Shown one piece after another: positions 4,413 through 41,783 of a stretch of DNA of 61,446 nucleotides. Position numbers and translations under genes: made by a program. Position 1 is the stretch's first letter. Each line of letters begins with the position of its first letter. The DNA is from a virus (Duplodnaviria > Caudoviricetes), in the IMG/VR virus record IMGVR_UViG_3300036851_000232, positions 1 to 61,446 of that record; one strand, written 5' to 3'. Below the pieces are notes generated by a model. It did not search any database. It saw only the letters and a program-made list of their open reading frames with translations, and was not told where the DNA came from.

Positions 4413-4672
4413 CCTGCTCCTGGTCGTGGCAGGTCGTCGTCGGTGGCCACGTCTGTCAGCCACTCGCCGGGGGGGCTGGGTCCGTACACAAGGTCGAGGG
4501 CGACGTGGGAGACGACGCGGAGCAGGTCGAGGGCATCGAGGAACATCGGGTCGGAATGGCCGATGGTGACGGCGACCTCGTGGTTGGTGGAGGCTTCGAT
4601 GGTGAGTGCGCGCGCGTCGTCGTAGCGGCCGGTCAGCCCAGCGCCGGTCGCGGGGCCGTCGTGGGTGGTCAT
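4409..4672 (-). CDS. Hypothetical protein
   Basis: ORF track; GGAGG RBS; ATGA coupling. Confidence 0.6.
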   Translation of the reverse strand: MTTHDGPATGAGLTGRYDDARALTIEASTNHEVAVTIGHSDPMFLDALDLLRVVSHVALDLVYGPSPPGEWLTDVATDDDLPRPGAG

Positions 4673-5919
4673 GCGGTTGCCTCCCCGAACAGGTCCATCT
4701 GGTTGTCGGGTACGGGTGGCGGCTTGGGAACCTCAAGTGCCCGCGCCCGCTCGCCGGGGTCTGTGGTCCGCCACGCCGCGAGTCGGCAATAGTCCGCGGA
4801 TAGATCAATGCTGACGCCGATGCGGCCGAGGATGGAGGCGACGAGTGCGACGGTGCCGGTGCCGCCGAAGGGGTCGAGGACAGCGGCGGGGCGGGTGGGC
4901 GCGGTGGGTTCGGGGCAGGCGCAGGCGTAGCCGGTGATGCTCACGAGCGCATCCATCGCAGGCTTGCCAGCCATGCCGGTCCCGTTCTGCCTGCCGAACG
5001 GCTCGCGTCTATCCTTGGCGAATCCAGACGTTCCGCTCTGCCCCTTCACGTACCGCTTGTCTGCCACCGGCCGCCGCCCGTCGCCGCATTCCACGCAGAT
5101 GCCGGGCGGGGACCAGCCACGGATGATCCGCCGCGGCCACTCCATCGGGAACGCCGCGAAGTGGTCGACGCCGAGGTGCGCGGGCACGGTGAGCGGCTGC
5201 GTGGGGATCTCCCACACGGAGCCGGGGAGCTTGCCCAGCGGGTTCGCAGCGCGTGTCAGCCCAGTCCCTGTCCCGTGCCTATTTCCCGACCCTTCCGCCA
5301 ATTCTGCTCGGACTTGTCGCCATGCCGGATTGACCTCACGTCCCCATACGGGCGTCTCCCGGATTTCGTCGACCGCCGAGTAGTAGCGCGGCTGCTTCAC
5401 CAGGTGGAACCAGGTCTCGTGGCTGCGCCGCACCCGGTCGGTGACTGATTCGGGCAGACCGTTCGGCTTCTGCCAGATGACCTCGGCGCGGAGGATGAGC
5501 CCGAGGTCGTCGATGCAGCGGAGGGCGTACCGCCACGGGATGCCGATGAGGGACTTCTCGCGGATGCCAACGTCTCGCCGCGCTGGCCGGGAACCCCGAC
5601 CTATCACACCATCGGAGGACCCGACGCCACCGCCACCGATGCCCGCGTACTTGTCCCCGAGGTTGACCCAGATGCTGCCGCTCGGCTTCAAAACGCGCAT
5701 CATTTCGCGAGTGGCATCGATGAGTTCGTCTAGAAATTCCGTGGGGGATGGCTCGCTTCCCAGTTGTCCGTCGTAGTGCTGACCGCCGTCTTGGTAACTG
5801 CGAAGCGACCAGAACGGCGGCGACGTCACAATGAGATCCACTGATTCGTCCGCGAGCGGTAGCTGCCGTGCATCTGCCCGGAGCACAACGGCCATGTTTG
5901 AGGAAACGGAACGGTTCAT
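4669..5919 (-). CDS. DNA methyltransferase (N4-C/N6-A, beta-class)
   Basis: DLIVTSPPF catalytic motif near N-terminus, VLKPSGSIWVNLGD, IWQKPN, HFAAFP, VLDPFGGTGT SAM-binding motif near C-terminus. Confidence 0.92.
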   Translation of the reverse strand: MNRSVSSNMAVVLRADARQLPLADESVDLIVTSPPFWSLRSYQDGGQHYDGQLGSEPSPTEFLDELIDATREMMRVLKPSGSIWVNLGDKYAGIGGGGVGSSDGVIGRGSRPARRDVGIREKSLIGIPWRYALRCIDDLGLILRAEVIWQKPNGLPESVTDRVRRSHETWFHLVKQPRYYSAVDEIRETPVWGREVNPAWRQVRAELAEGSGNRHGTGTGLTRAANPLGKLPGSVWEIPTQPLTVPAHLGVDHFAAFPMEWPRRIIRGWSPPGICVECGDGRRPVADKRYVKGQSGTSGFAKDRREPFGRQNGTGMAGKPAMDALVSITGYACACPEPTAPTRPAAVLDPFGGTGTVALVASILGRIGVSIDLSADYCRLAAWRTTDPGERARALEVPKPPPVPDNQMDLFGEATA

Positions 5920-6149
5920 GTAGTGACGTCTTTCCGCCACTGCTGTTGCACGTCGGCGGGTAGTAGCGCGAACGCCTTGCAGCCATAGCAGTCTGTTTGG
6001 TGCGGCTGGTCATGTTTGATGGCGTGGGCGAGGACTAGAAGGGTGCTGCGGGGAAGGCTGACACCAGATGAAGCTGGCGGGGCCATTGTTGGTGGCTGCG
6101 GACTGTCTTTGTGTTTGCGACGTAATAGGTTCATCCGTTGTCCCTTCAT
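5916..6149 (-). CDS. Hypothetical protein (lower GC)
   Basis: ORF track; stop overlaps methylase start. Confidence 0.5.
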   Translation of the reverse strand: MKGQRMNLLRRKHKDSPQPPTMAPPASSGVSLPRSTLLVLAHAIKHDQPHQTDCYGCKAFALLPADVQQQWRKDVTT

Positions 6150-6192
6150 GGCATGGCTTATGCTGCTGCGTCGGCTCGGATGACGTGGGCGG

Positions 6193-6606
6193 TCATGCGG
6201 CTGCTCCTGTGTCGTTGCGTCGTTGTCGCGTGTCGCGGACGTTTTTGGCGCGGTTGGTGGCGTCTCGGCAGGCGGGGCAGGGTTTCTCGCCGCGTCTGCG
6301 GTGCTGTTGGTGTCCGGCTTCGGTGCCGTGTTCGCGGTGCCGGTAGCCGGTGGGCTGGGGTGCGGTGCCGGCGGCGACGCGGGTCTGCCATTCGGCTGTG
6401 CGTTCGGCGGGTGTGAGGCCGCCGGCGATGCCGTCCCGCGCCGATGTGCCGACGCCGCCTTCCCAGGCGAGAACGTCCTCTAGGCAAAATGCTTTGACGG
6501 GGCAGGCGTGGCAGATTCGTTTGCCGGGTTCGACGGATTCGCCGGGAGCGGTGAACCACAGGCGCAGGGGCAGGCCGCGGCAGGCGGCTTCGTGGTACCA
6601 GCTCAT
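6193..6606 (-). CDS. whiB: WhiB-family transcription factor with extra C-terminal HG..C..C zinc-binding motif
   Basis: MSWYHEAAC...WF...ICHACPVKAFCL...GIAGGLTPAER: four Cys plus a GxWGG-like turn. Confidence 0.88.
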   Translation of the reverse strand: MSWYHEAACRGLPLRLWFTAPGESVEPGKRICHACPVKAFCLEDVLAWEGGVGTSARDGIAGGLTPAERTAEWQTRVAAGTAPQPTGYRHREHGTEAGHQQHRRRGEKPCPACRDATNRAKNVRDTRQRRNDTGAAA

Positions 6607-6830
6607 GCCGCGCCGCCTCTCCGCCGCTGCTGGGGTCGCCGGTAGGTGGCCCGGCGGCGGGCGATGCGGCACGGGCCGCAGTACAGGGCGGAGCCGTGGA
6701 CCGGTTCGCCGCAGGCGTTGCACGGGCCGCTGAACCGGATGGTGGCCCGGTCGTAGTCGCGGCGGGCGGCCTCGTTGGCGCGCGCGTACGCGTTCCACGC
6801 GGCCTGGGTGGCCGGGTCGAGGCGGGTCAC
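6603..6830 (-). CDS. Hypothetical zinc-finger protein (CNACG...YCGPCR)
   Basis: GTG at 6830 coupled to RuvC stop. Confidence 0.6.
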   Translation of the reverse strand: MTRLDPATQAAWNAYARANEAARRDYDRATIRFSGPCNACGEPVHGSALYCGPCRIARRRATYRRPQQRRRGGAA

Positions 6831-7513
6831 GTCGTCACTCCCTCCGGCCAGTCGACGGCGTTGAGTGCCTTGCGGTGCTCGGCGGGCATCGGCGCGATCG
6901 GCATCCCGAGCCGGTCGCAGCCCATGGCGCACAGGATCAGCGCGTCGGCCTCGTCGTTGCTGACCACCATGAACGCGGTGAAGCGACGCACCGCGGCGGC
7001 GAGCACCTCATCTTTCCCGGCGTTCCCCCGCCCGGTCGCGTACTTGGCGCGGGTCTGCGGTGATGCGACGGCCAGCAGGCAGCCGCGCCGGTCCAACGCT
7101 TCCGTGATGAGCCACCACAGCCCGCCGAGCTGATGTACGGCGTTGCCGCGGCTGCCGAACGACGGCCCTTCGACAACGACCAGCGCGTCAAGGTCGGTGA
7201 AGTCGAGGACGCTGTCGCGGATCCAGCGGAGCCGCTCGTAGCCGACCATGCGGCCGGGTGGCCGGAGGCGGTCGACCCAACCGGTGGAGCAGGCGATCCC
7301 GGTACTGGTGAGACTGAGGTCGAGGCCATACACGCGGGTGGGGGCCCCGCCCCCGGAGTTGCCGCGTCCCCGGGGGGGTGGGTCCGCGGTTGTGCTCGAC
7401 GGGGGCGGGGCTGTCCCGGCCAAGCCCTTAACCGGGACGTGGTGGGCCCGACCGGCGTCAGGGGCGTCACTGGCGGGTAGGGCCGTTTCGGGGAGGGGCA
7501 GCGGGCCGGTCAC
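6827..7513 (-). CDS. RuvC-like Holliday junction resolvase
   Basis: GLDLSLTSTG, VVVEG, KYATGRGNAGKDEV, NDEADAL motifs; low-complexity N-terminal extension, start uncertain. Confidence 0.88.
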   Translation of the reverse strand: MTGPLPLPETALPASDAPDAGRAHHVPVKGLAGTAPPPSSTTADPPPRGRGNSGGGAPTRVYGLDLSLTSTGIACSTGWVDRLRPPGRMVGYERLRWIRDSVLDFTDLDALVVVEGPSFGSRGNAVHQLGGLWWLITEALDRRGCLLAVASPQTRAKYATGRGNAGKDEVLAAAVRRFTAFMVVSNDEADALILCAMGCDRLGMPIAPMPAEHRKALNAVDWPEGVTT

Positions 7514-7884
7514 GATGCCACTCCCGGCTCGGTCGGGGCGGGAAGGACGGGTCGCCACAGGTAGCATTCATCGCCATTGGCCCACCGGTATTCGATGCGG
7601 AACGTGCCTGAGGGGGGCCGGTACGGCACGTCGAAGCCGGTGCATTCCATGGGGTAGATATCGGCGGTAATGAATGCCCCGACGTTGCAGAACGTCAGCG
7701 GAGGGCTGTCGTGCTGCGGTTGGCCGTCCTCGTCGTAGTCCTGGCGGCAGTGCGGCCGGTCGTCGTACGACACCGTGGACATGTCGGTGTTGCGGAACGG
7801 GCAGCACCATTCGAGGTGCATGCTGTCCTGTTCGAGGACGAGGGTCATGGTGTGGCCGTCGTCGTGCCACGTCGGTTCGCTCAT
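7510..7884 (-). CDS. Hypothetical protein
   Basis: ORF track; coupled overlaps. Confidence 0.6.
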   Translation of the reverse strand: MSEPTWHDDGHTMTLVLEQDSMHLEWCCPFRNTDMSTVSYDDRPHCRQDYDEDGQPQHDSPPLTFCNVGAFITADIYPMECTGFDVPYRPPSGTFRIEYRWANGDECYLWRPVLPAPTEPGVAS

Positions 7885-15986: not shown

Positions 15987-16259
15987 TCATGCCGCCGGTT
16001 CCTCGTCCGTCTCGCCGTCGTCGAGGACGGTGAAGAGCTTTTCGAAGCCGAGATGGGGGAAGGCGCGGAGGACGGCGGCGATGAACTCGCCTCCGGGCCG
16101 CTGGTCCCGGTTGCGGATCCGGCCGACGGTGGTCTTGGCCACGCTGAGCTGGCGGGCGACTTCGGCGTCGGTGGTCCAGCCCCGGGCGAGGCACGCGACC
16201 TCGAAGACGTCGATGTTCAATATGACGCCTGCGGCCACTGTTAGTCCTCTCATGGTCAC
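15987..16259 (-). CDS. Cro-like XRE HTH protein, first gene of leftward lytic operon
   Basis: TDAEVARQLSVAKTTVGRIRNRDQRPG HTH; divergent from repressor. Confidence 0.8.
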   Translation of the reverse strand: MTMRGLTVAAGVILNIDVFEVACLARGWTTDAEVARQLSVAKTTVGRIRNRDQRPGGEFIAAVLRAFPHLGFEKLFTVLDDGETDEEPAA

Positions 16260-16273
16260 CTACCGTGTGGAAT

Positions 16274-16396
16274 GTTGCGCATGGGCTACAAAGTAGCCGT
16301 TGCGTGCACGCGACGCAACCACCTGGGGAAAGAAATGTCAGTGCCTCTAACAGGACGAGGTCGCGTGTGTGCGTTACCGTGTTGCGTGTACGCGCC
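16274..16396. promoter_or_regulatory. Immunity switch operators (about 16-bp palindrome GTTGCGTGCACGCAAC-like, 3-4 copies)
   Basis: GTTGCGCATGGGCTAC 16274, GTTGCGTGCACGCGAC 16299, GTCGCGTGTGTGCGTT 16360, GTTGCGTGTACGCGCC 16381, between divergent HTH genes. Confidence 0.65.
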
Positions 16397-16410
16397 GAAG
16401 GGGAGACGCG

Positions 16411-16785
16411 ATGCCTGCACGCCCGCCAAGTCCGTGGGCCGGATACGTCCGCGCCCTTCTTGACACCCGGTTCGCCGGCAACGGGGCTGCCCTCGCGGCC
16501 GAGGTCGGCGTTGGTCGGTCAGCGGTCAGCCGGTGGCTGCGCGGGGCCATCCCCCGCATCGAGCATGTCCGAGCCGTTGCGCAACTCACCGGTGATCCGC
16601 TGATCGTGCTGCTGCGTTTGGCCTACGGGATTGAGTCCGAATCGGCGATGACGCCGGAAGAAGCGATCCAGGCCGATGAGCATCTCGACCAGGCCGCGAA
16701 AGAGGTTCTGCTCGCGTTGTACCGCCAGCTCCGCGAAAAATACGGCTGGGATCCGTCGAACCGGGCACACCGCACAGCGGTCTGA
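16411..16785 (+). CDS. CI-like immunity repressor (XRE HTH)
   Basis: GAALAAEVGVGRSAVSRWLRGAIP HTH; GAAGGGGAG RBS before ATG 16411; divergent from Cro-like gene. Confidence 0.82.
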   Translation: MPARPPSPWAGYVRALLDTRFAGNGAALAAEVGVGRSAVSRWLRGAIPRIEHVRAVAQLTGDPLIVLLRLAYGIESESAMTPEEAIQADEHLDQAAKEVLLALYRQLREKYGWDPSNRAHRTAV

Positions 16786-16786
16786 G

Positions 16787-16957
16787 TCAGGCGCGGGCCT
16801 CTTCTTCCTCTTCGACCAGCCGTAGCCGTTTCAGCCCGGGGCAGCGGTTCTTGGTGTCGTATGCGCCCGCCTGGTATCCGAGTTCGTACACGGCAGCCCA
16901 TGTCTCGGCCCAGCGCCGCGTCGCGACACAGATCAGCAGGCGGCGCAGCATCGGCAT
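16787..16957 (-). CDS. Small hypothetical protein
   Basis: Start MPMLRR after GAGGGG; convergent with repressor. Confidence 0.45.
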   Translation of the reverse strand: MPMLRRLLICVATRRWAETWAAVYELGYQAGAYDTKNRCPGLKRLRLVEEEEEARA

Positions 16958-17059
16958 CGGCTTCCCTGACCCCTCGTGAGAACGGAATCCCCCACCCGGA
17001 GAGCTAACGACGCCCGGCCATAGCGCGTTACGGCCCGACACCGGTTCTTTACCTTCGGT

Positions 17060-17302
17060 TCACGCGCCGCGCGGCCCGAGGATCGCGCTTTCGATCTGGT
17101 GGAACGCGTCCACCCGGCCCTGGTCGGTGGGCGGGGCAGCGGCGACGACTCGGGCAATCACACGGAGGATCACGTACGCGTCGGCGGGCGGAAGCGCATC
17201 GACCATGCGGGCGGCCCGGTCCGCGGCCGTCCGGTCCTGCTTGTAGTGCGGCCAGGACGCGGGCCAGTTCGGGTGCGCCGGTTGGGCCGGTTGCGTGGTC
17301 AT
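17060..17302 (-). CDS. Hypothetical protein downstream of GntR regulator
   Basis: AGGAGAGG RBS; ORF track. Confidence 0.65.
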   Translation of the reverse strand: MTTQPAQPAHPNWPASWPHYKQDRTAADRAARMVDALPPADAYVILRVIARVVAAAPPTDQGRVDAFHQIESAILGPRGA

Positions 17303-17316
17303 GGGGTGGTCCTCTC

Positions 17317-18075
17317 CTAGAGGTCGGAGCCGTAGAGCAGCCGGACCCGGGTCGCGTCGGAGACGGCACGCAGCACCTCGAGCCGCTGGCCGTCGTCGGT
17401 CGAGGTGATCCGGGTGGTGTCAAGGACGGCGGCACCGGGCGGCAAGTCAAGCGCGGCAGCTTCGCTAGGGGTGACGGGGCGGGCCCTGACCTGTTCGGTG
17501 TACCGGCCGGGGCGGTACCCGGCGTCGGTGAGCGCTTGGTAGATCCCGCCGGGCAGGAACACCGGCTCGGCGAGCGGTGTGCCGCCCGCGACGCTGGCCG
17601 GTATCCAGGAGGTGGTGAGCTGCGCGGGTTGCCCGTCGGCGTGCATGGTGCGGTACCGGCACACCGCAGGGCCGTCAAGGCGCAGTGCCTTGGTCACGTC
17701 GGCCGGTACCTCGTCAAGCGGTACCACGTCCACGTCATCGAGCCGTACCTGCGGTTCCATGCCGGCGCGGGTGACGGCCACCGACCAGGGCCCGCCCGCG
17801 ATGGCGCCGTTCGCGGCGGCTGCGTGCCGGGAGGTGCGGAGTTCGATGGGCCGGACGTCACGGACGACCGTGGACTGCCGTTCGTTGCCGCCGCGATGCC
17901 GGGCGATGAGGCCTTCCGCTTCGAGTTCCCGGTAGGCGCGGCGGACGGTTTCGCGGGCGGCGCCGTGCTTGCGGGCGAGCTCGGCTTCGCTGGGCATCTG
18001 CCCGCCGGGACCGAGTTGGGCGGCGAGGGCGCGCAGGTTGGCGGCGATCTTGGCCCACGTGGGGGTGTCGGGCAC
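17317..18075 (-). CDS. GntR/HutC-family regulator with UTRA domain (KorSA/TraR-like transfer repressor)
   Basis: MPSEAELARKHGAARETVRRAYRELEAEGLI wHTH; UTRA-type C-terminus (RPVTPSEAAALDLPPGAAVL..TR); GTG 18075 with GGAGG; divergent from the transfer genes. Confidence 0.88.
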   Translation of the reverse strand: MPDTPTWAKIAANLRALAAQLGPGGQMPSEAELARKHGAARETVRRAYRELEAEGLIARHRGGNERQSTVVRDVRPIELRTSRHAAAANGAIAGGPWSVAVTRAGMEPQVRLDDVDVVPLDEVPADVTKALRLDGPAVCRYRTMHADGQPAQLTTSWIPASVAGGTPLAEPVFLPGGIYQALTDAGYRPGRYTEQVRARPVTPSEAAALDLPPGAAVLDTTRITSTDDGQRLEVLRAVSDATRVRLLYGSDL

Positions 18076-18114
18076 CGGCTGCGCACCTCCGTTCACCCGT
18101 TCGTCGTGGGGTGC

Positions 18115-18164
18115 TTGACGATCCCATGCTGACGGGGGACCATCCCATTGTCTAGACCGGTACC
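18115..18164 (+). promoter_or_regulatory. Putative transfer-operon promoter and GntR operator
   Basis: TTGACG(18115)-N17-GACCAT(18138); GTCTAGAC palindrome 18150-18157 followed by CGGTACCG. Confidence 0.5.
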
Positions 18165-18182
18165 GAATGAGGGAGGCCCGCC

Positions 18183-18974
18183 GTGTCTCACGCCGGTACC
18201 GGTACCGCCGAACCCCAGGGCCGGTCGGCGCGCGGGTCAACACCCGATGCGCGGGCGGTGCCCGGTACGCCGGCCGGTCCTGGCCGGTACCGGGACCACG
18301 ACTGGTGGAAGATCACCCTTCGGGCCGTGGCCGGTACCGCCGCCGTCGTGGCCTCGTTCGTGTTCCTGGTTGACCTGGCGCGGGCGACGGGCTGGCCGGG
18401 ATGGACCGCGTACCTGCTGCCACTCTCGCTGGACGCGCTCGCGGCGGCGGCGTGGCGGATCTACGTGACCTGCGGCCGGGACCGGTTCGCCCTGTGGTGC
18501 GGTATCGGTACGACCGGGGCGACGCTGGCGGGGAACGCGGTGTCGCACCTGATCGGTACCGGGCACGTCGCGCCGGGCTGGTTGCTGGTCGCGACGGTGG
18601 GTGCGGTGCCGGCGATGAGCTTGGCGCTGGTGATCCACCTGACCGCGCCACCGAGGCTGCTGGACGCAGGTGCTGCTAGTCCCAGTCCGGCTGGGAGTTC
18701 GCTGGTAGTTGAGCGCGACGGTGCCGGCGGTCGGGGCGGGCCGCGGCCGGGGGGGATCGCCGCAGCGGGTCGGACCGCCGGCACCACAAGCCAGCGTAGC
18801 GACGACCAGCTGCTCGCCGAGATCCGCGCGCTCGGCCTCGAGCAGGTCGGGGCGGACAAGCTGACCGAGCCGCTCGGCATCAACAAGACCAGGGCGGTCA
18901 GGTTGCGGAAGCTGCTCGCCGCCGAGCTCGTACCGGCCAGCGGGAACGGACACACAGATGGGAGCACGCCATGA
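18183..18974 (+). CDS. DUF2637/Spd-like membrane protein (4 TM + C-terminal HTH-like region)
   Basis: ASFVFLVDLARATGWPGWTAYLLPLSLD...TLAGNAVSH...VGAVPAMSLALVIHL pattern of actinomycete plasmid spread proteins; GAGGGAGG RBS. Confidence 0.75.
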   Translation: MSHAGTGTAEPQGRSARGSTPDARAVPGTPAGPGRYRDHDWWKITLRAVAGTAAVVASFVFLVDLARATGWPGWTAYLLPLSLDALAAAAWRIYVTCGRDRFALWCGIGTTGATLAGNAVSHLIGTGHVAPGWLLVATVGAVPAMSLALVIHLTAPPRLLDAGAASPSPAGSSLVVERDGAGGRGGPRPGGIAAAGRTAGTTSQRSDDQLLAEIRALGLEQVGADKLTEPLGINKTRAVRLRKLLAAELVPASGNGHTDGSTP

Positions 18975-19174
18975 CCCCCGCGCTTTTCGTGATCATGATG
19001 ATGTTGGGTGCCGCGATCTTCGTGTCGATACGCGCCAAGCAGACGAAGATCTGGGAACTCGTCATGCTCGGCACATTCGGCGCGCTACTCGGCCAAGTAA
19101 CGATCGGCTCCGCGTACCTGTCCGGGCTGAGCAGCGTGTCCACGTCCCTGTTCGCCGCGATCGGCCTCGGCTGA
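18971..19174 (+). CDS. Small two-TM membrane protein (Spd-like accessory)
   Basis: Hydrophobic 67 aa ORF coupled between Spd-like gene and translocase. Confidence 0.7.
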   Translation: MTPALFVIMMMLGAAIFVSIRAKQTKIWELVMLGTFGALLGQVTIGSAYLSGLSSVSTSLFAAIGLG

Positions 19175-19180
19175 CACCCG

Positions 19181-20743
19181 GTGACGGCCGAACTGCAGGA
19201 ACGCGCCGGTACCGTCGCCGTCATGCCACTGCCCGTTGATCCGCCGGGTGAGGACACCGAGCCGGTACCGGCGGGCAGGCTGGGGCTGGTTCGGCGCGGC
19301 TGCGGTTGGTACGCGGGTTGTGTGCGCAACTACTTCCGACGCGGTTGCTCCGAGGCGTACCAGGCGTGGCGGTCCCGGGTGGACCTGTGGGCCGAGGGTA
19401 GCCATCGACTCAGGTCCGACTGCGAGATGTACACGAACGACCGGGTGGAGTGGCGGGAGAGGGAGAAGCAGCGCCGCAAGCAGCTGGAGAGGGAGGACGA
19501 GGCAGCTGTCCGGAAGGCGCTCGAGGAGAAGCAGCCGGTACCGAAGCCGTCGAAGTTCAAGCCGCGGGACCCGTGTCGCGAGCTGCATCGGCAGAGGATC
19601 ATGCGCAAGGCCGTGTCGCCGGTTGCCGGCGTCATCGGCCCTGCCCTAGCGGCGGTCGCCCTGGTATTCGGCGGCCCGGCCCTGATCCAGCAGGCACTGG
19701 TCGCCGCGCACGGTACCGCCCTCGCGACCGGATTCGCGGTTGCTGCTGCGATGGTTCTCGCGGTGGCCGCAGTGACGGTGTTGTCGGTGTTCGGGCAGGT
19801 CCGCAGCGAGCCAGCGGTACCAGTCGATCCCGGCGGGGAGGAGGACGCGACACCGTGGTCCCGGATCACCATCGGGAGGTTCCTCGACGACGGTTCGCCG
19901 ATCGAGATCCCGTTCGGCGACCATGTGCTGATCGCCGGTGCCACCGACGCGGGGAAGTCCAACCTTGTCAACGTTGTCATCTCGAAGATCGCCCCGTTCC
20001 CGGAGGTCGAGCTGTACGGCATCGACTTGAAGGGCGGCGTGGAACTCGGCCCGTGGGAGAACGTCCTCGTGGAGCTGGCCGAGGACGACAAGGCTGCGGT
20101 CGCGTTGCTGCGGCGGCTCAGTGAGGAGATGGACCGCCGGTACCGCACGCTCCGCGCTGCCGGGCGGAAGAACTGGCGGCTGCAGGACGGCCGATTCATG
20201 AAGGTGATCGTGGATGAGTTGGCCGAGTTGCCGAAAGCGGGCGTGGATCTCCTTACCCGGTTGGCGCTGCTCGGCCGCGCCGCCGGGATCTCTTTGGTGT
20301 GCGCCACACAACAGCCCGAGGTGGCGGTGATTCCGCAGCAGGCAAGGGGTCAGCTCCGTACCGTGCTCGGTCTGCGGGTGGAGCGGGCTGAGCAGGCCCG
20401 GCAGGTGTTCGGGGAGCGGGCGACCCGCGAGGGATGGGATCCGGCGTCGCTGGACCCGACGAAGCGGGGATCGCTGCTGGTCCGGTCGAAGTGGTGCACG
20501 GAGCCGCGGCCGGGCCGGTCGACGCGGATCACGGACGGCGAGGTCCGCGCACGTGCGAAGGAGTACGCGAGGACGCCACGCGAATATGTGGCCGAGGATC
20601 GGCCAGCCGGCGAGGGGGAAGAGCGGCGGTGCTTGTACTGCGGGAAGCCGCCCACGGATCCGCGCGCGAAGTACTGCTCGCCCGCGCATCGGAAAGAGCA
20701 TTGGCGACGCTTGCGACGCTTCGGCCCAGATGGGGGTTCCTGA
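19181..20743 (+). CDS. traB: TraB-like FtsK/SpoIIIE DNA translocase
   Basis: Two TM helices, HVLIAGATDAGKS Walker A, IDLKGGVEL, VIVDELAEL Walker B, GRAAGISLVCATQQP; gene context GntR-spd-tra. Confidence 0.85.
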   Translation: MTAELQERAGTVAVMPLPVDPPGEDTEPVPAGRLGLVRRGCGWYAGCVRNYFRRGCSEAYQAWRSRVDLWAEGSHRLRSDCEMYTNDRVEWREREKQRRKQLEREDEAAVRKALEEKQPVPKPSKFKPRDPCRELHRQRIMRKAVSPVAGVIGPALAAVALVFGGPALIQQALVAAHGTALATGFAVAAAMVLAVAAVTVLSVFGQVRSEPAVPVDPGGEEDATPWSRITIGRFLDDGSPIEIPFGDHVLIAGATDAGKSNLVNVVISKIAPFPEVELYGIDLKGGVELGPWENVLVELAEDDKAAVALLRRLSEEMDRRYRTLRAAGRKNWRLQDGRFMKVIVDELAELPKAGVDLLTRLALLGRAAGISLVCATQQPEVAVIPQQARGQLRTVLGLRVERAEQARQVFGERATREGWDPASLDPTKRGSLLVRSKWCTEPRPGRSTRITDGEVRARAKEYARTPREYVAEDRPAGEGEERRCLYCGKPPTDPRAKYCSPAHRKEHWRRLRRFGPDGGS

Positions 20744-20860
20744 GCGTGGGCAGCTTCTCTGATGGAGATGCGTCGCATGCGTCGCACCGCAGGTCAGGGG
20801 GCTTGCGATGCGTCGCATCATGCGTCGCTTCGCTGGAAGCGTCGCATCATGCGTCGCATC
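20704..20860. repeat. clt-like repeat cluster at traB 3' end (ATGCGTCGC x5, AAGCGTCGC x1, two inverted copies)
   Basis: Direct copies at 20768, 20777, 20808, 20820, 20837 (variant), 20849; GCGACGCT at 20704 and 20713. Confidence 0.85.
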
Positions 20861-20864
20861 TGTC

Positions 20865-21305
20865 GTGATTCCGTCGTGGCTGGTCTCAGCAGATGGCATC
20901 CTCGACCGTGTCCTGTCGCCGCTGGATCCGCTGGTAGCCGACCGGTGGCACTGGTTGCCGGTGCTGGCCGTGGCGTGGTGGACGGTGCGCTGGTTCTCGT
21001 ATCGGCCGGGTCTGTGGCTGGCGATGCTCCGCTGCCGGTTGCTGCGCCGGGGTGGTGAGCGGACCGCCCTGTACCGGTGGTTCGACGGGTCGGGGAGGTT
21101 GCGGTATGTGGGGATCTCGAATGATGTGCGGCGGCGCACCGGTCAGCATGCGGCGGGGAAGTGGTGGTGGTTCGAGGTGCGGTCCTGCACCGTGGAGTGG
21201 TTCGACACTCGGGGTGCGGCGTTGGCGGCGGAGCGCGCTGCGATCCGGGCGGAGCGGCCCCGGCATAACGTGGTCCACAACGGGCGACGGAGGGCGGCGG
21301 CGTGA
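20865..21305 (+). CDS. GIY-YIG nuclease with hydrophobic N-terminal segment
   Basis: TALYRWFD..GRLRYVGIS...RRRTGQH...KWWW...AAERAAIRAERPRHN; start uncertain. Confidence 0.78.
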   Translation: MIPSWLVSADGILDRVLSPLDPLVADRWHWLPVLAVAWWTVRWFSYRPGLWLAMLRCRLLRRGGERTALYRWFDGSGRLRYVGISNDVRRRTGQHAAGKWWWFEVRSCTVEWFDTRGAALAAERAAIRAERPRHNVVHNGRRRAAA

Positions 21306-21574
21306 CCGAGGTCGAGCGCGGCGATCTGGTGGATGCGGCGTACGCGCTGTTGATGGCGGCGATCCTGCTGCGCGACATGGCCGGCGCGATGCCCGCCAAG
21401 ACGTTCGTGGCGATGCCGCCGGATATTGCGGACCGGCTGATGTGGACTGGTTATCAGGACGCCTTCGACCGCCTGCCGGCCGATGTTCGGGGCGAGGCGC
21501 GTGCGCGGGTGTTAGCTGACCCGGCGGTTGTCGCGGCGCGTGCGCTTGATGCTGCGAACGGTCTCCGGGCATGA
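21302..21574 (+). CDS. Hypothetical protein, last gene of transfer operon
   Basis: GGAGGG RBS; GTGA coupling. Confidence 0.65.
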   Translation: MTEVERGDLVDAAYALLMAAILLRDMAGAMPAKTFVAMPPDIADRLMWTGYQDAFDRLPADVRGEARARVLADPAVVAARALDAANGLRA

Positions 21575-40633: not shown

Positions 40634-40963
40634 TCAGTCCAAGCTCAACACGGACCACTCGAAGCTGCGGCCGGTCCCGGCGGTCTGCTTCAGCGTGAAC
40701 GTGGCGCCGTCCACGGTGGCGACCGGCGGGGACTCGTAACGCAGCTCGGTCACGGGGCCGACGACGGTGGCGAGCCGACCGAGCACTTCGCTGCCCGCCG
40801 CGAGCACCTTCGACTTGATCCGCAGCTCCAGGATGTCCCCGGCGGCGAGGTTGGTCAGGTTGACGACCAGCACCCGCGTCTTGGCGGTGGTCGGCGTGGC
40901 CAGGCTGTGCTCGGTACCAATTGTCGCGGTCTGTGTCCCCGAGGATTCCCGCGCCAGCGCCAT
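40634..40963 (-). CDS. Small virion-associated protein
   Basis: ORF track; TLKQTAGTGRSFEWSV C-terminus. Confidence 0.65.
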   Translation of the reverse strand: MALARESSGTQTATIGTEHSLATPTTAKTRVLVVNLTNLAAGDILELRIKSKVLAAGSEVLGRLATVVGPVTELRYESPPVATVDGATFTLKQTAGTGRSFEWSVLSLD

Positions 40964-41781
40964 TAATCTACTCCAACCGCTAACACTCGGGGAATAGCTG
41001 TCGCGGCTACACTTGATCCCGCATGACGCGCCACAAGCCGAATACCTGCTGGAAGATTAGTCGGGACAGTCACATGTGGTGTGTGACATACCTCCGAAGT
41101 CGAAATACGCGCGCCCAGATCGGCGATTAATACCTGTTCATTACCCGCCGATCCATAACCAATATCCACCAGGACGCCCGTGGCCGTTAGGACAGCGTTA
41201 TTCGTTGGTGCTATACATGGAATTAACCACCTAATAGGATTGGCTGTAGATGCAGACAACTCAGTCCATGCACCTTTGGTATTTACAGCACCCGGAGTAG
41301 CCATAAGTGTTCCAGAGGAAACAGCCGTACTAGCTCCGTACGTCGTCGCTCGGCCACCATGTTCACCTGGCATCCACCCGCCACCAATAATTAAACATTG
41401 AGCATCAACTGTCTCAGAAACTACAGCCGATTGGCAGCGCGCCGCGATCCGTTCACCAGACGGAATGTAAACCGGAAGGAATATGGACCGGGTGCTACCC
41501 GAGAAACCCACCGCGATATTCTCCACCAAAACTCGCTCGGAAGCTGCCGCGCCCAATCCAATGTCGATCAACATCGACGTGTCGACCGCGGAGACACTGA
41601 TGCCATCTCGGTGCATCATCCAAATACCAGATACATCGAAGTCCGTAGCTGCAATCAGTTGTGTCCATGCGCCTTTAATATGCGCGGTACCCGAGGCGGT
41701 GAGAGTCTCCGGGACGCTGGACGCGGCGACCACGCCGCCGGTCTCGGAGCGGCCCGCGTCCGACAACGGCCACTGCGGCAC
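40963..41781 (-). CDS. Virion-associated protein with two-fold internal repeat, low GC
   Basis: KGAWTQLIAAT / KGAWTELSAST and IDIGLGAAASERVL / VDIGYGSAGNEQVL; GTG after GGAG. Confidence 0.7.
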   Translation of the reverse strand: MPQWPLSDAGRSETGGVVAASSVPETLTASGTAHIKGAWTQLIAATDFDVSGIWMMHRDGISVSAVDTSMLIDIGLGAAASERVLVENIAVGFSGSTRSIFLPVYIPSGERIAARCQSAVVSETVDAQCLIIGGGWMPGEHGGRATTYGASTAVSSGTLMATPGAVNTKGAWTELSASTANPIRWLIPCIAPTNNAVLTATGVLVDIGYGSAGNEQVLIADLGARISTSEVCHTPHVTVPTNLPAGIRLVARHAGSSVAATAIPRVLAVGVD

Positions 41782-41783
41782 GG

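Follow-up and report, generated by a model that had tools for sequence, protein, structure and literature searches.

A palindromic 8-mer array selected at the DNA level within the plasmid-like transfer genes of an actinobacterial phage

We analysed the IMG/VR virus record IMGVR_UViG_3300036851_000232, a complete record made up of a single contig of 61,446 bases, which was handled as a virus record and is called the window below. Part of it is a cassette resembling those of Streptomyces plasmids, with genes for a GntR/HutC repressor, a DUF2637 Spd-like membrane protein, a small membrane protein and a TraB/FtsK-like translocase (traB). The cassette holds an array of 16 GGTACC sites, which is strongly non-random and selected at the DNA level. 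Most of the sites are copies of the 8-bp palindrome CGGTACCG, and we predict that these copies are most likely protein-binding sites on double-stranded DNA that control or serve the transfer genes. The cassette is hosted by a phage genome rather than a plasmid, and the carrier is an actinobacterial phage with a plasmid-like DNA-transfer gene set.

Results

GGTACC sites are concentrated in the transfer cassette

The window contains 24 copies of the hexamer GGTACC, where 100 dinucleotide shuffles gave 9.55 ± 2.73 (maximum 17), and 16 of the 24 copies lay within positions 17514–20144, at exactly the coordinates listed in an earlier note on this DNA (Table 1). The other eight were in the remaining ~58.8 kb, where that note had estimated about seven; eight copies there are at the frequency expected by chance (~9.5 for the whole window). 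The palindrome CGGTACCG, which is its own reverse complement, was found 13 times in the window against 1.43 expected, with 12 of the 13 copies inside the array region. A recount of the flanks gave the same result as before: a 5′ C preceded all 16 array sites (CGGTACC) and the full palindrome was formed at 12 of them. The near-matches mentioned earlier were found as about four additional half-sites (CGGTAC or GTACCG). Gaps between sites were irregular, ranging from 6 to 653 bp across 2.6 kb.

A sliding-window comparison of k-mers, proposed in the earlier note, was run with a window of 2.7 kb. Parts of the motif led the clustering among all 6-, 7- and 8-mers, making up the top four 6-mers, the top four 8-mers and all but one of the top five 7-mers. 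For CGGTACC counted on both strands, 28 of 33 copies were clustered (binomial p = 2e-33). The usual relative of CGGTACCG elsewhere in the window was CGGTGCCG, an ordinary GC-rich word, and the array is therefore exact, with no fuzzy family of related words around it.

Fifteen of the 16 sites are in coding sequence and one (18159) is intergenic. Four lie in the GntR gene on the − strand, five in the DUF2637 gene and six in the traB-like gene, both on the + strand, in agreement with the previous description of sites that are mostly coding, spread over three genes and present on both strands. All three reading frames are used: six sites are read as GGT-ACC (Gly-Thr), five as xxG-GTA-CCx (Val-Pro, with the rare GTA codon) and four as xGG-TAC-Cxx (x-Tyr-x). 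The sites extend no further than the ends of the GntR gene and traB.

The sites are selected at the DNA level

Loss of the enrichment in codon-preserving shuffles had been named as a result that would overturn the array, but the enrichment persisted. The four cassette coding sequences contain 15 sites, and synonymous shuffles gave a mean of 4.16 (standard deviation 1.67, maximum 10), with none of 2000 reaching 15. This is a conservative control because the inflated use of GTA and GGT in these genes is kept. Shuffles of codon order gave a mean of 1.81 and a maximum of 8, again with 0 of 2000 reaching the observed count. Together with the use of three frames and two strands, the shuffle controls bear out the earlier statement that the array is no amino-acid artefact.

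We also counted the codon contexts able to hold the hexamer. These were used in 15 of 23 cases in the cassette, compared with 6 of 190 in the 78 other open reading frames (ORFs). Val-Pro was spelled GTA-CCx in 5 of 8 instances within the cassette and in none of 64 outside it, and the share of GTA among valine codons was 10/93 in the cassette versus 47/1273 elsewhere. By gene, the contexts used were 6/6 in traB, 4/5 in the GntR gene, 5/11 in the DUF2637 gene and 0/1 in the small membrane gene. Three more contexts in the DUF2637 gene match five of the six bases or a half-site, so that this gene carries five full and three partial sites. Seven flanking ORFs used 1 of 7 contexts.

All four sites of the GntR gene are within the UTRA-coding part. 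The residues that carry them (VP twice, RYR and GYR) were absent from the nearest homologue, P0122, which is 48% identical in an alignment with eight relatives (47% by BLASTP). Since these residues differ in the nearest homologue, some of the sites seem to have been made at a cost in amino acids.

A HutC operator core abuts the intergenic site

The intergenic region between the divergent GntR and DUF2637 genes spans 107 bp (18076–18182). Within it, the sequence GTCTAGAC abuts the CGGTACCG copy at 18158–18165, with the two centres 8 nt apart. In the parts of PMC4494728 that were available, the HutC operator core consensus is given as GTMTAKAC, most HutC sites have a GT–AC distance of 4, and a further, weaker box 7–12 nt from the centre is frequent in operators of the GntR family. 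The GT–AC distance of GGTACC is 0, which departs from the canonical HutC operator, and the adjacent GTCTAGAC is the element that matches the consensus. A scan of 16900–21400 for sigma-70-type promoters returned 0 sites.

Repressor binding is the tentatively preferred reading

In our tentative reading, held with well below even confidence, the GntR repressor uses the CGGTACCG copies as auxiliary or roadblock sites to silence a toxic operon. The sites would belong to two divergent transcription units of a kil/kor-type module. The GntR/HutC repressor would nucleate at GTCTAGAC in the shared promoter region and would then also fill the CGGTAC-type boxes beside the operator and onward through both transcription units, where the boxes could have an auxiliary, bridging or roadblock role. 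In this way both the potentially lethal traB operon and the gene for the repressor would be kept tightly off until transfer is triggered.

Several observations are consistent with this reading. The 8 nt between the centres of GTCTAGAC and CGGTACCG are within the range of 7–12 nt reported for extra boxes. GGTA is the half-site core of repeat-binding HutC/FadR-type regulators (TGGTATT, TGGTATAW), according to the available text of PMC4494728. In the Streptomyces plasmid literature, for which we drew on parts of PMC4447253, the GntR-type TraR of pSVH1 binds 14-bp repeats TTTGGTACACAACT that begin with TTTGGTAC and have an imperfect inverted copy TTTGGTACCTAAGT, and traR could not be deleted while traB was present. 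GGTAC is common to CGGTACCG and the pSVH1 TraR repeats. A candidate element containing GTAC, TGTTGTACCAACAAC (L172), lies upstream of the GntR gene in a 14-kb Streptomyces plasmid. The sites do not extend beyond the two divergent transcription units. Nearly all are intragenic, at a codon and amino-acid cost, although the phage also has a compact intergenic array (described below) and can thus build non-coding ones cheaply; this suggests that site position along the transcription units matters.

Diverged sequences were available from one soil-metagenome run, which contains the stretch (0.89 of the sampled words) and is its possible source; contigs were compared at 80% likeness. The run offers no independent support. 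Among the differences listed, a variant contig covering ~18135–18229 had nine substitutions and two indels, all within 18166–18192, with the operator, the adjacent site and the double site unchanged. A second contig, 84% identical over 17305–17780, had the sites at 17652 and 17705 altered, and the site at 17720 was unchanged among the differences listed. These variants are suggestive of promoter-proximal sites that are conserved and intragenic sites that are individually replaceable, and they fit a conserved core with individually dispensable auxiliary sites.

Other points weigh against repressor binding. GGTAC was absent from the korA-type intergenic regions of pIJ101 and of a second plasmid locus (L174). 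A palindrome of 8 bp is short for a winged-helix dimer, and with a GT–AC distance of 0 rather than 4 a single dimer could not sit canonically on one site. The CCGG shared by the right flank of the operator and the motif is an overlap and is no independent evidence. Other candidate DNA-binding proteins are encoded nearby, namely the CI-like, Cro-like and ParB-like/helix-turn-helix (HTH) proteins, the DUF2637 C-terminus and the TraB zinc ribbon. Finally, an electrophoretic mobility shift assay with pSVH1 TraR across the whole plasmid retarded one fragment, in the part of PMC4447253 available. Since one fragment alone was retarded, intragenic TraR sites are without precedent. The earlier note had offered a binding array for the GntR protein or for the HTH of the Spd-like protein, or a centromere-like or loading region. 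A protein-binding array is the best reading here as well, but with a GT–AC distance of 0 GGTACC is no canonical HutC/GntR operator.

The 3′ end of traB bears a second, compact array

A repeat scan found a second array with the unit (AT)GCGTCGCA(TC), a near-palindrome ATGCG-T-CGCAT with a central T. On the + strand, five exact copies and one copy with a single mismatch occupy ~95 bp directly after the traB stop codon, and two further copies (one exact, one with one mismatch) are on the other strand in the last codons of traB. Across the window GCGTCGCA is at chance (11 copies versus 10.2 expected), and 6 of the 11 exact copies lie within 150 bp. The clt locus of Streptomyces plasmids is a compact locus of short repeats read by TraB (PMC4447253, in part), and the compact GCGTCGCA array is a better candidate for TraB recognition than the CGGTACCG array. 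It may be the true TraB recognition locus, or it may be an operator set for downstream genes.

An alignment of distant FtsK-like proteins in viral contigs gave 50 loci, four of which (L004, L030, L033 and L046) had an 8-mer array of 21–41 copies. In L004 the array (6711–7764) lies within the 3′ end of the FtsK-like ORF (5215–7236) and in the 300 bp downstream, and in L030, L033 and L046 the copies are at similar locus positions. A palindrome was among the three top-ranked 8-mers listed in 0 of the 50 loci. These four loci are high-GC IMG/VR contigs, and their repeat is CCGGGACA, present in both orientations and often overlapping as TGTCCCGGGACA.

Alternative readings of the array

A second reading, the main rival and held with slightly less confidence than the first, takes the CGGTACCG copies as tether or loading sites comparable to sps or clt that link the phage DNA to the transfer apparatus. 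The binder would be the TraB-like zinc ribbon or the HTH-like C-terminus of the DUF2637 protein, and the phage genome would become the preferred substrate for translocation between hyphal compartments or cells. The word length agrees with this, as translocase motifs are 8 bp and Streptomyces TraB reads 8-bp clt repeats (PMC4447253, in part). The sites also lie within or next to the genes that encode the presumed binders, with every available context used in traB, and the translocase, which has no gamma winged helix, instead carries a CxxC...CxxxH pattern together with a basic helix. The DUF2637 C-terminus is modelled as a three-helix HTH-like unit. As a precedent, the zinc-finger protein SpdA2 of pIJ101 binds a short perfect palindrome in its own coding sequence (available part of PMC4170104); we located this palindrome, CGTCACGTGACG, twice inside the pIJ101 SpdA2 coding sequence by checking the sequence. 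SpdA has been proposed as an adaptor between DNA and apparatus (PMC4447253, in part).

However, an array with the clt layout is already present at the traB 3′ end, and the four distant FtsK-like viral loci have a similar placement, with the array of L004 at the gene 3′ end and just downstream. The compact array weakens the loading-region reading of CGGTACCG because it fits the clt layout better, and the centromere-like or loading option of the earlier note is weakened with it. Known TraB recognition sequences (TRS) are asymmetric, direct and tight, whereas the CGGTACCG sites are palindromic and irregular over 2.6 kb, which disfavours hexamer assembly. Loading gives no reason for costly intragenic positions over a non-coding array. 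The likeness between the TraB zinc ribbon and SpdA2 is at the level of pattern and was judged by eye (best BLASTP E value 3.3). DNA binding by SpdB2 was reported as non-specific in the available part of PMC4447253, and fold matches of the DUF2637 C-terminus were to assorted HTH domains and weak, with none at E ≤ 0.001.

A wider scenario is speculative and in our judgement unlikely: a temperate actinophage may have adopted the double-stranded-DNA conjugation motor of Streptomyces, with a palindromic 8-mer array in the coding sequence of the motor genes, a new type of recognition array, marking its own genome. The zinc-ribbon TraB or the membrane-anchored HTH would read the array, and the compact array at the traB 3′ end would be a second element. 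If this were true, phage DNA would need no virions to pass from one hyphal compartment or cell to another.

A role at the mRNA level is improbable. The self-complementary CGGUACCG would pair between copies, or be the target of an RNA-binding protein or RNase, and the messages of the GntR gene and the traB operon would be translated less or become less stable. The sites occur solely in two transcription units, and as RNA ACCGGTACCG (18156–18165) can pair with CGGTACCGGT of the double site (18194–18203) in a 10-bp stem that encloses the Shine-Dalgarno sequence and GTG start codon. Among the differences listed, the changes in the diverged soil-run variant are in the loop and none is in the arms. 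However, the hairpin predicted at 18156–18203 did not exceed shuffled sequence in stability (z = −0.31, not significant; 71 of 200 shuffles folded at least as well). It involves three of the 16 sites and leaves the other thirteen unexplained, and helices of 8 bp are weak obstacles for ribosomes. Palindromic symmetry is not required in the target of an RNA-binding protein, whereas perfect symmetry of this kind is the hallmark of a dimer bound to duplex DNA.

We assign a similarly low probability to a DNA methyltransferase or restriction-type target (of the phage N6/N4 methylase or of a host enzyme) acting as an epigenetic switch, or to another host factor. Clusters of GATC are known to act as an epigenetic switch, GGTACC with its 8-bp extension is shaped like a type II recognition site, and the phage does encode an N6_N4 methyltransferase. 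Against this, the chance frequency outside the cluster amounts to neither avoidance nor enrichment across the genome, and a link between the methylase and GGTACC is absent, its best named relatives being weak CcrM-type matches (38 bits). The confinement of the sites to three genes would also be unexplained.

The absence of any function, with the array as a by-product of amino-acid composition, Gly-Thr-rich peptides or a local mutational quirk, is very improbable and was rejected on the shuffle controls and the use of codon contexts: the DUF2637 protein is Gly-Thr-rich in its N-terminal part and some viral loci described below have GGTACC runs resembling tandem Gly-Thr coding repeats, but the sites occupy three frames and two strands in three unrelated proteins and their C flank is invariant.

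Cassette genes and their relatives

The GntR protein has a TraR/KorA-like position and is 33–36% identical to the products of GntR genes of Streptomyces plasmids. A tblastn search of phages with it returned pMLP1 alone (34% identity), and the same search with the DUF2637 protein returned none. The C-terminal 74 residues of the DUF2637 protein gave the three-helix HTH-like model with a predicted local distance difference test (pLDDT) score of 72.5. In a diverged variant contig from the soil-metagenome run, position 18229 is joined to 18714, so that 484 bases comprising most of the membrane part of DUF2637 are skipped or replaced; the same variant has ATG in place of GTG at 18183.

The best NCBIfam match of the translocase was plasmid_TraB, which scored 53.7 bits where the family cut-off is 800 and covered the ATPase part alone; by sequence the 520-aa protein is TraB-like and no TraB equivalog. 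Pfam found no FtsK gamma winged helix in it, and a model of the C-terminus (pLDDT 65) was without a winged helix, a domain that is present in many of its database relatives. At its C-terminus the translocase shows the zinc-ribbon pattern CxxC...CxxxH and, after it, a basic helix; zinc-ribbon matches were weak. No SpdA homologue was found, the best match of the TraB C-terminus to pIJ101 SpdA2 being the one given above, and no short homologue of this C-terminus was found. A protein of a Streptomyces plasmid named 'RRQRL zinc-binding protein' was considered and rejected, as it is not related to the C-terminus of TraB. In the database, the translocase is called as a protein of 438 aa whose start is 82 codons further on than the GTG at 19181 (region 19181–19426). 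A 530-aa TraB homologue, P0002, aligns from residue 1, with 69% identity over 99% of the query (BLASTP; 72% in alignment), and the long ORF, with two sites in the extension, is therefore the better call. P0002 and P0122 are both on short Logan contigs.

Further searches for the cassette returned little. Searches with the TraB protein gave no pattern match in viral contigs, 46 pattern matches in genome contigs and 67 in metagenome contigs, and a two-sequence TraB alignment gave 93 in genome contigs; 0 were confirmed in each of the last three. A blastn search with 17000–21500 found none in phages and one 143-bp match in plasmids.

The 14-mer of the double site occurred at no fewer than 120 loci (at least 120) in viral contigs. 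When 15 window proteins were compared with these loci by tblastn, no homologue of the GntR, DUF2637 or TraB protein was found. Six of the loci (L154, L097, L056, L146, L064 and L090) had 10–14 GGTACC in 3 kb, in contexts like GGTACCGGTG or in tandem units of ~105 bp, which resemble Gly-Thr coding repeats. In the Micromonospora phage/plasmid pMLP1 (L173), 13 copies of CGGAAGAG (0.34 expected) lie in 600 bp at 5254–5860, ~1.1 kb from the GntR homologue, making this another GntR element with a dense 8-mer array. An eight-copy run of GCGTGAAC in the DUF2637 gene of the Streptomyces plasmid that encodes the RRQRL protein was tried as a parallel and rejected: seven of the eight exact copies are in one frame and all are in one orientation, and the run is an ERER-type peptide repeat.

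A limited literature search found no such array in print, and the matches to the 8-mer that were listed were cloning primers or a Holliday-junction oligonucleotide. The decamer d(CCGGTACCGG) crystallises as a junction. A closely related decamer, d(TCGGTACCGA), serves as a model for the Holliday junction (PMC13763174, in part). The co-occurrence of junction-forming decamers and a phage RuvC-like resolvase is probably a coincidence.

Genome setting

The window encodes the large terminase, major capsid protein and tape-measure protein of a siphophage-like virus, together with a RuvC-like resolvase (6827–7567), an exonuclease, an endolysin, an N6/N4 DNA methylase and an HNH nuclease. Most window genes are on the − strand, and the array spans a + strand island plus its divergent regulator. 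No integrase was noticed in general scans of the window ORFs. The CI-like and Cro-like proteins encoded at 15987–16785 are other possible binders of CGGTACCG. A region of ~1.1 kb at 40645–41783 has a lower G+C (0.64) and no ORF with high G+C at third codon positions, and two of the eight off-array GGTACC sites (40913 and 41686) are inside it.

The identity and order of the cassette genes follow the traR/korA, spd and traB set of transfer modules in Streptomyces plasmids and actinomycete integrative and conjugative elements (PMC4447253, in part). In the 14-kb Streptomyces plasmid the GntR gene is likewise divergent from DUF2637...TraA-TraB. Homologues of SpdB2 are present on some actinophages, and the authors suggested that they might aid the spread of phage DNA (same source, in part).

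Table 1. Coordinates of the array, its neighbouring elements and the genes discussed
Feature	Position	Strand	Details
GGTACC array, 16 sites	17513–20145		Sites at 17514, 17652, 17705, 17720, 18159, 18195, 18201, 18286, 18333, 18555, 19208, 19264, 19537, 19712, 19816, 20139
GTCTAGAC, HutC operator core match	18150–18157		Exact match to GTMTAKAC; unique in window
Three promoter-proximal sites	18158–18207		One upstream of the ribosome-binding site; double site at DUF2637 codons 5–8
Second array, clt-like candidate	20704–20858		Unit (AT)GCGTCGCA(TC); repeat scan
GntR/HutC-type regulator, 252 aa	17317–18075	−	Winged HTH + UTRA; Pfam GntR 4.4e-11, UTRA 1.7e-17; PHROG 10724, 2.4e-38
DUF2637 (SpdB2-like) membrane protein, 263 aa	18183–18974	+	Pfam DUF2637 8.6e-5; ESM Atlas DUF2637 clusters 0.91–0.93
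Small hydrophobic protein, 67 aa	18971–19174	+	No site
TraB/FtsK-SpoIIIE-like translocase, 520 aa	19181–20743	+	Six sites; Pfam FtsK_SpoIIIE 2.6e-19
GIY-YIG nuclease ORF	20808–21305	+	Downstream of cassette; no GGTACC
CI-like HTH gene	16369–16785	+	Neighbour of cassette
Cro-like HTH gene	15987–16259	−	Divergent from CI-like gene
ParB-like/HTH/DUF4326 protein, 362 aa	14769–15857		Left of the CI-like/Cro-like pair
N6_N4 methyltransferase	4669–5940		Pfam 5.7e-32; PHROG 67

Discussion

The array resembles several known systems in part. Like the clt/TRS arrays of pSVH1 and other plasmids (PMC4447253, in part), it is an 8-bp word repeated in cis in a GntR-Spd-TraB module, beside an FtsK-like translocase. 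Known TRS are direct, asymmetric and packed in a short clt, whereas CGGTACCG is palindromic, runs across 2.6 kb of coding sequence and lies upstream of and inside traB; it is the compact array at 20704–20858 that has the clt layout. TRS are read by a winged helix at the C-terminus of their cognate TraB, and the translocase here is without the gamma-type winged helix.

The tre operators of TraR, TTTGGTACACAACT in pSVH1, share with the present array a GntR-type repressor gene divergent from spd-traB, the kil/kor logic, the GGTAC core and, through one CGGTACCG site, a position in the divergent intergenic region. However, tre repeats are 12–14 bp long and intergenic in the available text of PMC4447253, whereas 15 of the 16 sites here are intragenic and the word is an 8-bp palindrome; the canonical HutC core GTCTAGAC is present here in addition. 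The canonical HutC operators (PMC4494728, in part) share the GT...AC symmetry, and GTCTAGAC fits them exactly, but the array motif has a distance of 0 and not 4.

The sps sites of pIJ101 are also short perfect palindromes inside the coding sequence of a transfer gene, where they encode a fixed peptide. They are copies of a conserved 12-bp palindrome, CGTCACGTGACG, with or without the central T, present two to three times within or beside spdA; they are bound by the zinc-finger proteins SpdA/SpdA2 and affect DNA handling, not transcription (PMC4170104, in part). Here, in contrast, the word is a different one of 8 bp, and it is present in 16 copies in three genes.

In Streptomyces-type modules, clt, tre and sps are short, local and mostly non-coding repeats. 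The present array is unusual in its phage setting and in saturating coding sequence: a single 8-bp palindrome has been pressed into nearly all permissive codon contexts of three genes in a phage-borne module. Such saturation is rare and points to a collective function that depends on the number of sites or on their position along the genes. The sixteen identical sites, each removable by synonymous recoding, provide an experimental handle.

Among phage systems, the stoperators of Cluster A mycobacteriophages are many repressor sites along phage transcription units and are thought to block elongation. Stoperators are asymmetric, 13–14 bp long, oriented, genome-wide and mostly between genes, whereas the CGGTACCG sites are palindromic, intragenic and in a single module. 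If the CGGTACCG sites are translocase or tether sites, FtsK-like motors would have a mode of recognition that is new, and the idea that phage DNA spreads in mycelial hosts independently of virions would gain support. If they are repressor roadblocks, as we tentatively prefer, stoperator-like silencing would have been invented independently a second time, here for use on a lethal translocase.

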